From Candidatus Collierbacteria bacterium RIFOXYD2_FULL_45_13 (lineage in GTDB: Bacteria > Patescibacteriota > Microgenomatia > UBA1400 > MFAQ01), in NCBI GenBank assembly GCA_001774685.1, contig MFAS01000001.1, positions 1,025,252 to 1,089,251 on the forward strand: a DNA stretch of 64,000 nucleotides, in the 5' to 3' direction. A program made the translations under genes and the position numbers. Each line of letters begins with the position of its first letter. The first letter of the stretch is position 1. Below, in pieces: positions 24,176 through 33,341 of this stretch. The notes under the pieces were generated by a model. It worked only from the letters and a program-made list of their open reading frames with translations. It was not told the origin of the DNA and made no database searches.

Positions 24176-24427
24176 TTATTCCTCCAAAATCACCACATCC
24201 ACCACGTTTCCCACCACCCGAACGATACCCCTTTCACACTTAGTTTTCCATTTTTGACCAGAAACTCTACCCACAACAATCTCACCAGAGAAGATCGATA
24301 CAAAGTTAGCGTGTTCCGCCAGGATATCAAACGGACCAATTTCATTGGCCATGGAGACACTGAAACACTCAGTCTCAAGTAAGACATCGGTTTTATTTCT
24401 CACAGTTACTTTTAGTTTTTCCATCAT
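24176..24427 (-). CDS. atpC: F1-ATPase epsilon subunit, truncated (N-terminal beta-sandwich only, 83 aa)
   Basis: Position after beta, small size, and a beta-strand-rich sequence. It lacks the ~50-aa C-terminal helical hairpin of canonical epsilon. Overlaps beta by 4 nt. Confidence 0.6.
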
Positions 24428-25812
24428 TTCAGTCCTCCCACAAAGAGCATCTTTTCTTCGTCTACCCCATCATACTTCCCTGCCAGTATCTCGCTCACAT
24501 TCTCCACCACCTTTTTGAGTGGTACTTGCTCCCCTTGCAAGCCTACATGTCGTTGCGTCACCGAGAATGGCTGCGTCATGTAGTTCTTCAGCATCTTTGC
24601 CCGTTTGTAAGTAGTTCTGTTCTGTAGAGATAGCTCAGCTTCTCCCACCAGGGCGACGACCCTCTCTAGTTCCTGAGCCCGCTTAAGCAGCTCTTTGGCA
24701 GCCAAGGCCGTTTCAAAATGTTTCAGTCCGACAATCTCCGTGGTTAGTAGTGAGGATGAGCTGGCCAGCAAGTCAATTGCCGGGAATCTTCCCTCTTGAT
24801 ACACTTCTCGCGACAGAATAATAAATGAATCCAGATAGCTGTACACACTCTGTATACCACTGTCCATTAGATCATCAGCCGGCACATAAATGGCTTCTAT
24901 CGAACTCACAAAACCACTGTCTGTCGACACCAGGCTTTCGTGGAACTCGGCAATCTCCGAAGTTAGAGTCGCTTGATAGCCATCCTCAGAGGGGATATCG
25001 GCTTTTAGAGACGCCAGTTCGCTCCCAGCTTGGATAAAGCGAAAAACATTATCACAAACAAACAGTACGTTCTTACCCAGTCGGTCTCTAAAGTCCTCTA
25101 CTATCGTGGTCGCAGCATAAGCCGTCAAAAAGCGATTCACCGCGCTAGTACCCATCAGTCCAAAGATCAGAGCTACGTTTTTTAGCAAGCTCTTTTGTTT
25201 CAAATCACGATAAAGTTCATGTCCTTCACGCACACGTTCTCCGATACCTGCAAACACCACCACATTCGAGTGTTCTCCGTCTAGCGTGGTCAAATTATTT
25301 ACGATCTCAGACAGTAATACCGTTTTCCCCACACCGGCACCACCAAAAAGACCCACCTTGCCACCCTGCACCAAAGGTGCAAAGAAATCCACCGCTTTTA
25401 TTCCTGTCTCCCACAACTCTTTTTTGGTATTTACTTTGGTTAGATCCATTTTGTGGTGCTTCCACATCTCTCTCATCTGAAACTCTACTTTTCCACCGCC
25501 ATCGGCCGCATTGCCAAAGATGTCCACCACTCTTCCTAGAAGCTCCTCCCCCACCGGCACCATCAGCCTTTCCCCTGTCCCGCACACCTGCAGCCCTCTG
25601 CAAACCAGGTCATTGCCAGACATAATCATGGCCCTAATCAAGCCCGAAGGTTTGGTCTGAATTACCAGCATGCTGACCTCCACTTCTTTTTCGGACTTCA
25701 ACACTTCATGTACACTTGGGAGTGTTCCACTATCAAACTTCACCTCCACGATCTCCCCGTTGATCGCACTTACTGTCCCACAAGCCACTTTCTTTTTATT
25801 ACTATTGTGCAT
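24424..25812 (-). CDS. atpD: F1-ATPase beta (catalytic) subunit, divergent
   Basis: Walker [15 protein letters not shown], then [13 protein letters not shown] (GER.REG) and hydrophobic strand/Walker [11 protein letters not shown]. The DELSEED region is replaced by EAELSLQN. Confidence 0.85.
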
Positions 25813-31800: not shown

Positions 31801-33341
31801 TCGTTTCTGAATACAAAAACAGGAACTGTACTACTGGCAATACTATTAACTAAGTAGGCGTAGTTACTTGAGCTTCCGCCACCCATAGACAGTGTACCAC
31901 CGGCTACAGAAATATTACTATTGATTAGGCCATCGCCATTGATGGTTAGTTTTCCATTTACTGTGAGTGCTTGATTCCATTGGCTGTCACCAATAATTGC
32001 TTCTCCGTTGACTGTTAGCATTTTACTCGGTTCAGTTGTTCCAATCCCCACTCTTCCGGTTGACGTATCCACATACAGATCATCAGTATTGACGGCGAAG
32101 TCGCCGGTGGTGGAGAGGGCCACATTTAAGTTTTGTCCTGCAAGGGGGGTAATGGTTAAGGCACCGGAGGAGGAAAGACCGGTACCCATGTAAAAATTAC
32201 CAGAAGTGTCTATGTAACTTACTCTTGTTCCACTGTGTCCGTAAATATTGAGGGGGTAGTCAGTTGCCGGAGCGCTGGTAGCATCAGAGTAACCAAGAAT
32301 AATATCTCCATCTTCGTCGATCAGGGCTTTTTGGTAACCGGCAATGGCCAGGCCCAGGAGTTGGCCGTTGGCAGCACTGGTCGTGGGGTTAATAATGACT
32401 GAGCCTTGAGAGATAGTGGTATCGGTGGGGGCGTAGGAGAAGGTAGTTTGTCCGGAAAAGGCTTGGGAAGAGTTGGAATTAATGTTAGCCACCCAGAGGT
32501 TGTTGAAGCGTTTGGTGGTCGACCCCAGATCACTACCCAAATCCGTATCCGGTAGGAAGGATTCCCCGTTGGTAATGGTGGCGTTGCCAAAGGTCAAGGT
32601 GTCCACAACTACACTGTCCGTAGTGGTTGTTAAGCCCACACTTGTACCATTGTCTGTCCAACCGGAGAGTGCATAATTTGGTTCTACTGCCGTAAAGGTA
32701 ATCTTGTCATTGGTGGCATCGGTGGTAATGGTTACACCACTACCAGCAAAGGTTAAGGTGTCACCATTTGTGTCTGTAACCACATCACTTTGTCCGCTGA
32801 CACTGATGGTTTTGAAAATACTTTGGGAAGAGCCTGTGTCTGAGTTGGTGACTTCGTTACCACTGACACTAATACCACCACCAGCCGAGAGGGACCGTAT
32901 GCCGGAGTTGCTGATCTTCAGTCCGTCAATGGAAATGCCGTCACCGGCAGATAGAGTCAAGTCTCCCGTCTTCGTCTGCAGTGAAGTAACACCCGTATTG
33001 GTCAGTGTTGGTGTCTGCCCCAAAGAAATACTGATTCCCTTACCGGCAGTTAGAGAATAGATGATATTGGGAGCAGAAATATCTTGTAGGAATGTGGCCA
33101 GCCCCGAGAAGGTAGTCGTGTCGGCAAACTGTGCCGGGACATTGATGGAAAAGATATAGTTAGCAGGAGATTCTTCAGCCGTTGTGTCAGCCAAGACACT
33201 CCCTGGAGTAGTACTCTCACCCAATACTTGAGTAGACCTTTCAGCCATCACTAGTCGTATTTCCTTGAAGCAGATTACCAATCCAACCAGTACCAGCGGT
33301 ATAGACAGGAGATATTGTAGTTTACCAAACTTGGTAGTCAT
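28836..33341 (-). CDS. Giant (1501 aa) tail-fibre-like surface protein with C-terminal Peptidase_S74 (intramolecular chaperone) domain, three ~40-aa repeats and Thr/Pro-rich tail
   Basis: N-terminal signal/anchor helix. G/T/S/N-rich beta-structure-like sequence. Triplicated repeat VGIGTTAPTxKLHVxGAVTGKALAIFDxTGxQNIL. C-terminal ...DKVLGLRPVSYNWKSTGDGALGFIAQEVRDVFPELV matches the S74 chaperone domain of phage tail fibres/endosialidases, followed by a coiled coil and PT-rich end. Confidence 0.8.
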   Translation of the reverse strand: MTTKFGKLQYLLSIPLVLVGLVICFKEIRLVMAERSTQVLGESTTPGSVLADTTAEESPANYIFSINVPAQFADTTTFSGLATFLQDISAPNIIYSLTAGKGISISLGQTPTLTNTGVTSLQTKTGDLTLSAGDGISIDGLKISNSGIRSLSAGGGISVSGNEVTNSDTGSSQSIFKTISVSGQSDVVTDTNGDTLTFAGSGVTITTDATNDKITFTAVEPNYALSGWTDNGTSVGLTTTTDSVVVDTLTFGNATITNGESFLPDTDLGSDLGSTTKRFNNLWVANINSNSSQAFSGQTTFSYAPTDTTISQGSVIINPTTSAANGQLLGLAIAGYQKALIDEDGDIILGYSDATSAPATDYPLNIYGHSGTRVSYIDTSGNFYMGTGLSSSGALTITPLAGQNLNVALSTTGDFAVNTDDLYVDTSTGRVGIGTTEPSKMLTVNGEAIIGDSQWNQALTVNGKLTINGDGLINSNISVAGGTLSMGGGSSSNYAYLVNSIASSTVPVFVFRNDLNTGLGSAGSDIASLIAGGTNILNVTTTGVGIGTTAPTSKLHVSGAVTGKALAIFDETGNQNILVASASGSTKLTLDRSGNLTAYGTVQAGTASNYIYMSTGGIGTQGNTNPWSINYTNGSSNGASITLGSTAYGLDFYGGGYNSGGDVSVWTWTGNPTDSTHAERLTIKASTGNVGIGTTAPTGKLHVSGAVTGKALAIFDETGNQNILVASASGTPKLVIDRTGKMTIGGTDTTYNTLNLAAAATPRIGFSVPGGNDAQGYFNYIQRSTDGQTMRYNAGFNAGAGYGHIFSIDNGSEMMRIEANSRVGIKDSSPDGTLEVVKFSTDPLLMISSAAANDGDYLYIGNTGLVGIGTTAPGAPLEVVGTQVNIYNNSTNHGRLYIGNSNATAADNLGGYLYIGKFNAVPGSDNPLGAVYFYAKTTDSVTHVAGFQSTVVTGSTTRSLMTGNFDIMTKPSGVDDPVTRIRIDQNGLIGIGTTSPTQLLSLDGTAARTIWMERNTTAATAGQGLTLSSGGAISGTADLAGGDLTLKSGISTGTGTSALHLYTATAGSTGTSDNTPTEKMTILGSGNVGIGTTNPGYKLEVVGTSHFSGALTLNNTLYLNDSFTSSNYISNNTQVTTYASGYNKSSTYGHRFLIDGSEYFRIGTNEYPDDQTRARIILSNDSDTYWINPAANTFAWVTGGTERLRIDSSGNVGIGTTAPTSKLHVTGAVTGKALAIFDQTGDQNILTASSSGVTKFTIGNDGTVTTTLGTGTVYSNSGVLTNTDPSDINLKKDVLSLGDDTLDKVLGLRPVSYNWKSTGDGALGFIAQEVRDVFPELVGSNNDGTLGLYTTQLIPVLAKAIQEQQLLIDEIALSSRSAAISESQWNSLSDLANSLSVAIENLKDRIMAIETRLTEMADKLFAKEATFTTLCVGDVNNKTCLTKEQVDRVIQSLPATPSATLTAPQLDGQTTPTSEVSPTPTSTPTPIPETTPVASESAQTL
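29600..29720. repeat. Intragenic ~100-nt DNA repeat of the tail-fibre gene (copy 1; ~80% identical to copies at 31170-31290 and 31605-31720)
   Basis: ...ATATTCTG.T.CCC.GTCTCATCAAAAAT.GCCA..GCCTTGCCGGT.AC.GC.CC.G.GACGTGGAGTTT... recurs three times and encodes the ALAIFDxTGxQNIL repeats. Confidence 0.7.
31170..31290. repeat. Intragenic DNA repeat of the tail-fibre gene, copy 2 (~90% identical to copy 3)
   Basis: See 29600-29720. Confidence 0.7.
31605..31720. repeat. Intragenic DNA repeat of the tail-fibre gene, copy 3
   Basis: See 29600-29720. Confidence 0.7.

Follow-up and report, generated by a model that had tools for sequence, protein, structure and literature searches.

Six tightly packed genes on the minus strand of a genome of Candidatus Collierbacteria bacterium (Microgenomates; Candidate Phyla Radiation, CPR) appear to encode an F-type ATPase that has been rebuilt around an unusual membrane subunit. 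The genes lie at 33341..24176 of a 64,000-nucleotide stretch of contig MFAS01000001.1, referred to below as the window, and specify, in order, a giant fibre protein, a secreted domain fused to a hairpin resembling subunit c of ATP synthase (henceforth the c-fusion), and F1-type alpha, gamma, beta and epsilon subunits. The residue that serves ion coupling in c-rings has been replaced in the hairpin, and a gene for subunit a was found neither in the window nor at related loci. The complex probably consumes ATP to do work at the cell surface and does not synthesise it. Taken as a whole, the locus can be read as a remodelled, ATP-hydrolysing F-type motor that translocates no ions, carries an extracellular crown on its rotor and is functionally tied to the fibre; we regard the chances that this entire reading holds as evenly balanced.

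The six-gene operon and its F1 module

Rereading of the open reading frames (ORFs) against the DNA showed that neighbouring genes overlap or nearly touch at every junction. The fibre and c-fusion genes overlap by 4 nt (ATGA), 4 nt separate the c-fusion from alpha and 1 nt alpha from gamma, gamma and beta overlap by 11 nt, and beta and epsilon by 4 nt (ATGA). Coordinates, strand, lengths and junctions proved exactly as listed in the initial annotation of this DNA, and the motifs that it had picked out, the GERKTGKT P-loop of alpha and GERVREG of beta, are seen in the translations. No convincing terminator emerged from a scan of the six-gene block, whose results did not rise above chance. Upstream of the block, the promoter-like site at 33417..33444 is only a candidate, since such sites are in total no more frequent in the region than chance predicts. 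The initial annotation had also considered that the arrangement might be an artefact of a contig join. An assembly chimera is ruled out by the presence of the identical locus on at least 23 contigs of independent ENA, NCBI and JGI assemblies, two of these contigs measuring about 1.08-1.09 Mb.

Pfam hidden Markov models matched alpha and beta to PF00006 (E-values of 1e-57 and 1.4e-57, respectively) and gamma to PF00231 (1.1e-19). Epsilon matched PF02823 at 3.9e-4, below the Pfam cut-off; the family is present in epsilon orthologues of 81-93 amino acids (aa), and the orthologues in L006-L008 do carry it (L001 to L093 are labels of the loci fetched from relatives). Alpha and beta are F1-type proteins and not ATPases of the FliI or type III secretion (T3SS) kind, an identity that the initial annotation had named as a threat to its reading. 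In the Protein Data Bank (PDB) beta matched F1 beta best, at 1e-110 against 4e-35 for EscN, and alpha likewise matched F1 best; among NCBIfam models beta scored 416 bits with atpD and 204 bits with SctN, whose cut-off is 604.75. The FliI6-FliJ-FliH complex resembles the present module in that an F1-related ATPase serves a surface appendage, but FliI is a homo-hexamer with no alpha/beta pair, no PF00231-type gamma and no c-ring, whereas the locus described here has a separate alpha and a gamma.

The four subunits are distant from every curated subfamily. NCBIfam scores were 415.8 bits for atpD (equivalog cut-off 462.85) and 337 for atpA (484.45), and gamma (45.8 against 194.45) and epsilon (17.5 against 67.25) fell short as well; gamma matched TIGR01146 at 6.7e-12, well under the equivalog cut-off. 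The alpha and beta models of the alternative F1F0 enzymes (alt_F1F0, the N-ATPases) gave 406.7 (cut-off 752) and 315.5 (750), and those for Mycoplasma MSC_0618/0619 and MMOB1660/1670 gave 356.7 (570), 241.3 (520), 333.2 (850) and 342.9 (600). By these scores, the four proteins lie nearest to F1 models and under every curated cut-off, and constitute a divergent F1 outside the curated subfamilies. The earlier description of recognisable yet divergent F1 subunits is borne out. Catalytic motifs are maintained among relatives, with GGAGVGKT in 59 of 59 beta sequences, GERxREG in 58 of 59 and SV[TS]RVG in all 42 alpha sequences. The idea that the alpha N-terminus is shortened only in lineages lacking delta was rejected, the lengths being equal in both groups.

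Epsilon is truncated. The protein aligns with positions 1-80 of NCBIfam profiles that are 127-136 positions long, and its C-terminal helical domain is missing. In bacterial F1Fo, the C-terminal helices of epsilon inhibit ATP hydrolysis.

A second F-type ATPase, suggested by a weak alpha/beta match at 62-466 of the window, was rejected as rho: a partial gene for transcription termination factor Rho, cut by the window edge (1-490, minus strand), is the sole other sequence resembling ATP-synt_ab. An "alpha" match far upstream in L030 likewise belongs to an unrelated P-loop ORF of 364 aa.

The c-fusion and its family

The 255-aa c-fusion gave no at-threshold match in Pfam, NCBIfam or PHROGs. Its AlphaFold2 (AF2) model, with a confidence (pLDDT) of 85.7, runs from a signal peptide through a beta domain (aa 27-155) and a linker to a helical hairpin (aa 182-254). 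Three lines of analysis suggest that the hairpin is c-like, as the initial annotation had proposed, and it may be homologous to the F/V-type proteolipids (PF00137). A profile of 26 family hairpins retrieved an F-type c subunit as its top match in the PDB (E=6.6e-4). Comparison with canonical c subunits by hhalign gave E=1.7e-4 over 68 columns and both helices; minor inaccuracies are possible in the reference c sequences used there, on which the profile search of the PDB does not depend. Foldseek matches of the hairpin had TM-scores of 0.8-0.88 and root-mean-square deviations of 1.3-1.6 Å. The GIEALGRNP loop aligns with the R-Q/N-P loop through which c subunits contact gamma and epsilon, and the predicted topology, in which the signal peptide is followed by an external ectodomain and the loop rich in positive charges faces the cytoplasm, agrees with the N-out/C-out arrangement of c subunits.

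At the position of the ring carboxylate (P+18 after GRNP) the family has Ile, Val, Ala, Leu, Phe or Gly, and an acidic residue occurs in none of the 197 members (0/197). On one face of the second transmembrane (TM) helix, near this position, a polar pair is conserved, Asn at P+13 in 185/197 and Thr at P+17 in 164/197. The c-fusion fills the slot of atpE, and no second c gene is present in the operons of the fetched loci. An a-like ORF, defined by the motif R-[LP]-x-[GAS]-N and at least three TM helices, was found neither in the window nor in 88 loci scanned over up to +/-10 kb, and PF00119 was absent from the called genes of the 13 loci with precomputed Pfam matches (L001-L008, L089-L093). No b- or delta-like gene was found in the window by tblastn with the b and delta proteins of relatives.

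These observations bear on the possibility that the enzyme is, after all, a conventional ion-coupled synthase or pump, with a and perhaps a normal c encoded elsewhere and with the c-fusion either acting as an accessory or binding ions through Asn P+13 and Thr P+17. The conserved polar pair would suit such an enzyme, as would the canonical order c-b-delta-alpha-gamma-beta-epsilon of most relatives, and the gene search covered a 64-kb window of the genome. The absence of the carboxylate from the whole family argues the other way, every characterised F-, V- or A-type ring that we know of requiring one. So do the occupation of the atpE slot by the c-fusion with no second c gene there, the lack of an a-like gene within 10 kb in 88 loci, and the F1 scores under the NCBI equivalog cut-offs for atpA, atpD, atpG and atpC. 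The lineages concerned, moreover, have no respiratory chains, and a lineage sister to them lacks ATP synthase entirely (PMC7143001). We consider a conventional enzyme highly unlikely. That the complex would only hydrolyse ATP is proposed because the carboxylate and a have been lost, because the epsilon brake has been lost too, and because these lineages are fermentative and do not respire.

The c-fusion is widespread. A genome-collection scan found it in 231 GTDB species genomes (thus in at least 231 species) belonging to the Levy-, Shapiro-, Gottesman-, Woese-, Ames-, Roizman- and Collierbacteria and to WWE3. The proteins fall into 532 clusters at 50% identity (E<=1e-30), an initial search having returned 146 homologues, and many residues are invariant across the family alignment. 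In 80 fetched loci the commonest gene order is c-fusion, b, delta, alpha, gamma, beta, epsilon. Both b and delta are detectable in 53 of 73 species-level loci, and 12 more have space for them; in 8 of the 73 just 5-141 nt lie between c and alpha, and these form a stalk-less group with the Collierbacteria and Gottesmanbacteria loci. The b of relatives is a long-helix protein with a single TM segment, and delta matches OSCP/TIGR01145 at 2.8e-6. The initial statement that a, b and delta are all missing stands for the window; as regards b and delta it does not extend to most relatives, 53/73 of which keep both, and the loss is specific to the clade of the window.

Two relatives have unusual operon copies. 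In a Gottesmanbacteria locus (L006), an ORF for a GIY-YIG endonuclease, probably part of a mobile element, lies between the c-fusion and alpha genes (10892-11233). In L089, the operon copy at 4964-9449 of the locus, on a 559-kb contig, is split into many short genes, most likely by long-read frameshift errors and not by pseudogene formation.

One could also suppose that the operon has no present function and is what is left of an ATP synthase decaying in the reduced genome of a symbiont. CPR genomes are indeed reduced, a is gone, b and delta are gone in one clade, the F1 subunits are divergent and the L089 copy is fragmented. That fragmentation, however, has the look of frameshifts from the assembly of one long-read contig, and in the window the reading frames are intact, the genes tightly coupled and the sequence identical on at least 23 contigs. 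Decay is also at odds with the conservation of the family across 231 species, in which dozens of residues are invariant and the catalytic motifs intact, and with the gain of a well-folded ectodomain, which is an innovation. We find a functionless remnant barely credible.

The ectodomain has structural counterparts in phages. Its fold matches include the C-terminal fragment of phi29 gp12 (3gqh) and the N-terminal base of phi29 gp8.5 (6qyy), and further HFTV1 (8qsy), Sf11 gp40 (9ocb) and TW1 (5wk1). Sequence identity to these domains is just 8-20%, and the c-fusion differs from them in being joined to a membrane hairpin and in not being part of a virion. The phage folds that it resembles are bases or decorations binding trimeric phage structures, a resemblance in favour of a link to the fibre. 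Some longer c-fusions (P0385, P0377, P0395 and P0392; 390-524 aa) have a helix-turn-helix (HTH) domain resembling HTH_17, a cytoplasmic linker and a TM segment in place of the signal peptide. Their operons (L091-L093) retain b and delta, and a stand-alone MerR gene of 73-77 aa lies divergently upstream.

The giant fibre protein, its link to the operon and the remaining window

By its domain and repeats, the 1501-aa protein is assigned to the Peptidase_S74 tail-fibre/endosialidase type. Peptidase_S74 (PF13884) was matched at 1.1e-13 (51.7 bits against a cut-off of 22) and PHROG tail-fibre families at 1e-35 and 3.5e-31, with baseplate matches too, and a fragment of the protein bears the NCBI name "Long tail fiber protein p37". 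An AF2 model of aa 1-295, built from an alignment of 18 sequences, had a pLDDT of 58, and only the TM segment (helix 4-36) was reliable; as the fibre is probably a trimer, a single chain makes a poor target for AF2. In most orthologues (1000-3200 aa) a cytoplasmic MerR/HTH_17 domain (TLRRWE..G.L.P.RT.GNQRRY) comes first, with a single TM helix after it and the extracellular fibre last. The HTH is present in L007, L011, L013, L016 and about 40 other loci and absent from the window copy. Such orthologues would, from their domain order, be membrane-spanning one-component regulators fused to a fibre protein.

The fibre gene travels with the operon in several configurations. In about 41 of about 70 loci, tblastn with the N-terminal domain (query aa ~4-250) found matches upstream of the operon on the opposite strand, and 30 loci have a giant-like ORF of at least 600 aa that is divergent and within 1.5 kb of the operon. 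In the window the gene has the direction of the operon and overlaps it, in L009 it is again co-directional and upstream, and in L092 a fibre-like gene stands on the same strand 3' of epsilon. Although the surroundings have been reshuffled in three ways (divergent upstream, co-directional upstream with overlap, co-directional downstream), the gene persists next to the operon, which suggests selection on proximity and not inertia. The single operon including the fibre gene that the initial annotation described is found in the window and is not the rule elsewhere, the gene being divergent, with an HTH-encoding start, in most relatives. An independent observation comes from a 2026 preprint (Troman et al., bioRxiv 10.64898/2026.03.03.709456), which describes ATP-synthase and tail-fibre-like genes as central in the neighbourhoods of pam pilus genes in Saccharimonadia and Microgenomatia; this co-localisation supports the link between fibre and ATPase.

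A regulatory connection is also suggested. In 43 of 76 loci the divergent strand encodes, within 2.5 kb, the MerR motif TLRRWE...GNQRRY. The heptamers TTGGACA/TGTCCAA are about 24-fold enriched in the divergent intergenic regions (5.3/kb, against 0.22/kb in the same loci); they are repeated in these regions of 19 loci (e.g. L082, L079, L027 and L011), often as inverted pairs 10-14 bp apart, and are a candidate operator for the MerR-type HTH. No such repeat is present upstream of the operon of the window, and in Collierbacteria co-transcription seems to have replaced HTH control of the fibre gene. Because the fibre gene is mostly divergent and HTH-bearing, its link to the ATPase may be one of regulation, whether in addition to a structural link or in its place.

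It is on these grounds that a static complex must be weighed: an F1-like head on a c-like platform that would serve as an ATP-dependent switch, sensor or assembly and quality-control factor for the fibre, or for another envelope structure such as Pam-type pili, and whose link to the fibre would be mainly transcriptional, through the HTH. The cytoplasmic MerR/HTH_17 of fibre orthologues in 43/76 loci, the stand-alone MerR gene in the same divergent position in L091-L093 and the enrichment of operator-like repeats are all in keeping with this view; c-fusions bearing an HTH and a TM segment would suit a platform better than a rotor, the clade of the window has no stator, and the preprint places ATP-synthase genes beside pilus operons. 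The conservation of a full rotor set (gamma, epsilon and the RNP of the c-loop), on the other hand, is hard to explain without turning, and the peripheral stalk of b and delta, which is useful only against torque, is kept in most lineages. To our knowledge, no F1-type alpha3beta3-gamma functions without rotation. We judge a static platform unlikely, though deserving of serious consideration.

The remodelled ATPase could also be real and the fibre a mere inherited neighbour. The crown would then act on a different target (peptidoglycan, the S-layer, some other pilus or a ligand from the host) or anchor the complex in the wall. No fibre gene is near the operon in L008, L014, L030 and L031; a reciprocal look-up from homologues of the fibre N-domain found the operon adjoining in L089 and not in L090; the operon is often flanked by genes for glycosyltransferases, its surroundings repeatedly include a protein with the LytR_C envelope domain (see below), and the preprint indicates that the neighbourhood is common to Saccharimonadia. 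Adjacency maintained through three reshuffled arrangements argues against such a reading; we hold it to be distinctly unlikely, though still to be taken seriously.

Positions of the operon, its products and their parts are collected in Table 1.

Table 1. Features of the six-gene operon and of the proteins it encodes (positions in the window)
Feature	Position	Strand	Basis or remark
Promoter candidate CTGACA-16-GATAAT, 10/12 sigma-70-like	33417..33444	-	Best match in region, within the 124-nt gap 5' of the fibre gene
Fibre protein, 1501 aa, N-terminally membrane-anchored, tail-fibre-like	28836..33341	-	Peptidase_S74, PHROG
Fibre: single N-terminal TM helix, aa 8-25	33267..33320	-	No HTH before it, unlike most orthologues
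Fibre: membrane-proximal N-domain, aa ~57-250, GxGISVxGxxITNS-type repeats	32592..33173	-	Part conserved beside c-fusion operons
Fibre: tail-fibre-like repeat region, aa ~373-1265, three GIGTTAPTSKLHVSGAVTGKALAIFD modules	29547..32225	-	PHROG
Fibre: Peptidase_S74 intramolecular chaperone domain, aa 1286-1338; then coiled-coil and Pro/Thr-rich tail	29328..29486	-	
c-fusion, 255 aa: signal peptide, extracellular beta domain, subunit-c-like hairpin	28072..28839	-	Profile, hhalign, structure search
c-fusion: Sec-type signal peptide, aa 1-22 (...VLA/QS)	28774..28839	-	By eye
c-fusion: extracellular beta domain, aa 27-155	28375..28761	-	Fold of phage capsid-decoration, head-fibre-base and appendage C-terminal domains
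c-fusion: c-like hairpin, helices aa 182-219 and 221-254, invariant loop GIEALGRNP	28078..28296	-	
c-fusion: G239 codon, aligned to the essential c-ring carboxylate (E. coli D61)	28123..28125	-	Profile and hhalign alignments
F1 alpha-like, 474 aa; GERKTGKT P-loop, SVTRVG arginine finger, divergent C-terminal domain	26643..28067	-	
F1 gamma-like, 279 aa	25802..26641	-	PF00231
F1 beta-like catalytic subunit, 462 aa	24424..25812	-	PF00006
Epsilon-like, short, 83 aa, N-terminal beta-sandwich alone	24176..24427	-	PF02823

Directly 5' of the fibre gene lies the gene of a 243-aa membrane-anchored protein with a LytR_C domain (33466..34197, minus strand; PF13399 at 7.2e-5), which may be an envelope-anchoring accessory. 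Homologues stand beside the operon in L010, L015, L021, L048 and L089, and in L015 the gene overlaps the start of the c-fusion; the association is weak. In Levybacteria, a Fic-like protein (a weak match) with a C-terminal HTH-like region is encoded co-directionally and directly 5' of the c-fusion (L007, 9021-9974). Its equivalents, of about 315-330 aa, occur in L016, L019, L020, L023-L028 and L039, where they sit between the c-fusion and the divergent fibre gene.

On the other side of the operon, a DUF378 membrane protein is encoded 90 nt downstream of epsilon (23825-24085, minus strand), and four Pfam-less ORFs (20282-23773, plus strand) converge on the operon; one of them, of 250 aa, ends in a cold-shock-like motif and another, of 391 aa, is polytopic. 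That these four might be a pam pilus operon was rejected by eye, as signal peptides are absent from them and the proteins seem to be cytoplasmic or polytopic, and no recognisable pam operon lies directly beside the ATPase genes in the window.

Further away, the segment at 1662-16085 includes genes for a sortase, a LysM-YkuD L,D-transpeptidase and a GT2 glycosyltransferase. Large Pfam-less ORFs at 3917-5749 (minus), 10499-14344 (plus) and 14349-16085 (minus) possibly encode more surface or pilus proteins. A metal-homeostasis island at 34248-48362 comprises a P-type ATPase with an HMBD, an HGSNAT-type acyltransferase, DUF302, YtkA/FixH-like and DsbA-like thioredoxin proteins, a pair formed by a BlaR1-M56 peptidase and a Penicillinase_R repressor, DUF305, an IS200-like transposase, a 1135-aa P-type ATPase with two HMA domains and a DsbD_2-HMA-cupredoxin fusion. 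GC skew on the plus strand is negative throughout the window (1-64000), whatever the orientation of the genes, in agreement with the one-strand C-richness reported for Collierbacteria and the order UBA1400 (PMC7143001); it comes near zero only over the fibre gene (28001-34000), probably on account of a composition rich in Thr, Ser, Ala and Gly.

A proposed surface motor, related systems and implications

We propose the following mechanism. Alpha3beta3, gamma and the short epsilon would form a normal F1 motor, seated on a ring of c-like hairpins that keep the GIEALGRNP loop for contact with gamma and epsilon. With a hydrophobic residue or Gly in place of the ring Asp/Glu, the ring would translocate no ions. 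Each hairpin would bear a beta domain of about 130 aa on its outward-facing N-terminus, giving the ring an extracellular crown. ATP hydrolysis would turn the rotor of gamma, epsilon and ring, or put torque on it, and the crown would pass the motion or force to the surface; the fibre base is the likeliest recipient, and the role would lie in attaching to a host cell or interacting with it. In most lineages the MerR-type HTH of the fibre would bind the TTGGACA/TGTCCAA repeats of the shared promoter region; in Collierbacteria the HTH would have been lost, the fibre gene joined into the operon, and the b/delta stalk lost too. Rotation or extension of the fibre itself is pure inference. The proposal of the initial annotation, an F1 module on something other than a conventional Fo and linked to a surface fibre, fits the loss of the carboxylate, the absence of an a gene and the gene neighbourhood, and is in that measure partly supported.

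A crowned rotor ring is physically possible. In eukaryotes, the c-ring of the V-ATPase is capped on its non-cytoplasmic side by the single-pass proteins ATP6AP1/Ac45 and ATP6AP2/PRR (Voa1 in yeast). V-ATPase rings, however, have carboxylates, work with an a subunit and pump protons, and their luminal domains are separate proteins instead of being fused to each subunit.

Several points weigh against the surface motor. While the sequences show the gene content, the homologies, the lost carboxylate, the intact catalytic motifs and the conserved neighbourhood, we infer that the hairpins assemble into a ring, that it rotates and that its crown touches the fibre, and the biological role as well. The first TM helix of the hairpin is rich in Phe and has no GxGxGxG packing motif of c-rings, so that the oligomer could differ from a c-ring. 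In the stalk-less clade to which the window belongs there is no stator, and hydrolysis would mostly spin F1 in the cytoplasm unless it were held in some other way. In some relatives that keep b and delta, an HTH and a TM segment on every c-like subunit look sterically awkward for rotation past the stalk. The neighbourhood is not absolute either, L008, L030 and L031 having no fibre gene close by and L090 a fibre homologue apart from any ATPase. The HTH and the operator-like repeats suggest a regulatory link that needs no physical contact. The preprint suggests that Saccharimonadia with an ordinary Fo have this neighbourhood too; if so, the genes may have been adjacent before the ATPase was remodelled. 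The genome may also contain a canonical atp operon at another site, the search for a and c having covered the window and the loci of relatives.

Among known systems, the canonical F1Fo (atpBEFHAGDC) shares with the locus the F1 subunits alpha, beta, gamma and epsilon, a c-like hairpin with an R-x-P loop in the atpE position and, in most relatives, b and delta in canonical order. Here, by contrast, a is missing near the operon, the carboxylate is found in 0/197 members, GxGxGxG is lacking, and a signal peptide and a 130-aa ectodomain have been added. The epsilon without its C-terminal domain, the F1 scores under cut-offs and the absence of b and delta from the clade of the window are further differences.

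A comparable concept is that of the F1-like X0 ATPases of Mycoplasma (Beven et al. 2012, PMC3369863; PDB 9io5), which comprise the Type 2 gliding G1-ATPase (MMOB1660/1670) and Type 3 (MSC_0618/0619). They too are F1-like modules of reduced, host-dependent bacteria that have no a, b or delta and for which coupling to a membrane or surface partner other than Fo was proposed; Type 2 drives the surface legs in gliding. They are encoded in seven-gene clusters with three unrelated partners, two of which have 3 and 12 TM helices, and no c-like subunit (PMC3369863), and the clusters coexist with a genuine Type 1 operon. In the locus described here a fusion with a c-like hairpin is the partner in the membrane, b and delta persist in most CPR relatives, and scores are far below the cut-offs of the Mycoplasma families. 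The N-ATPase (Dibrova et al. 2010, PMC2881411) is likewise a divergent, separately evolving F-type operon, but it keeps a, a c with a full Na+ site, and AtpQ and AtpR in the order atpDCQRBEFAG; gene order here is different and scores with its models are under the cut-offs.

Full-text literature searches for the variant in CPR turned up only the neighbourhood remark of the 2026 preprint. In the preprint, the term "subunit c" does not occur in the text, the carboxylate and the missing a are not mentioned in the sections examined, and the ATP-synthase genes are read as a coupling to ATP production (10.64898/2026.03.03.709456). The initial annotation was aware of no described system with this architecture; the Mycoplasma X0 ATPases are comparable in concept (PMC3369863), and the preprint already notes the co-localisation in CPR.

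Reconstructions of CPR metabolism routinely count alpha, beta and gamma as an ATP synthase and then puzzle over the source of proton-motive force. In the lineages considered here, which amount to at least 231 species, the ring is without the coupling-ion residue and no a accompanies it; the enzyme is thus unlikely to be chemiosmotic, and the puzzle may dissolve. A bolder version of the proposal, which we regard as unlikely, is that Microgenomates and WWE3 possess a hitherto unrecognised surface organelle in which the crown of an ATP-driven F-type rotary motor, protruding through the membrane, turns, twists or cranks a giant trimeric fibre to contact or penetrate hosts, so that the "ATP synthase" of surveys would not conserve energy at all. 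If true, it would join the flagellum and the archaellum as a third solution for a rotating appendage in prokaryotes. On the main reading alone, the complex would be just the second F1 motor in a non-bioenergetic task, after that of Mycoplasma, and the first to keep a c-like ring and, mostly, a peripheral stalk, and would offer a natural intermediate for how rotary ATPases are re-purposed. A rotor ring with an external domain would represent a new route by which the energy of cytoplasmic ATP crosses a membrane without an ion gradient. Finally, giant fibres with a cytoplasmic DNA-binding domain suggest a surface-sensing circuit relevant to the episymbiotic lifestyle.

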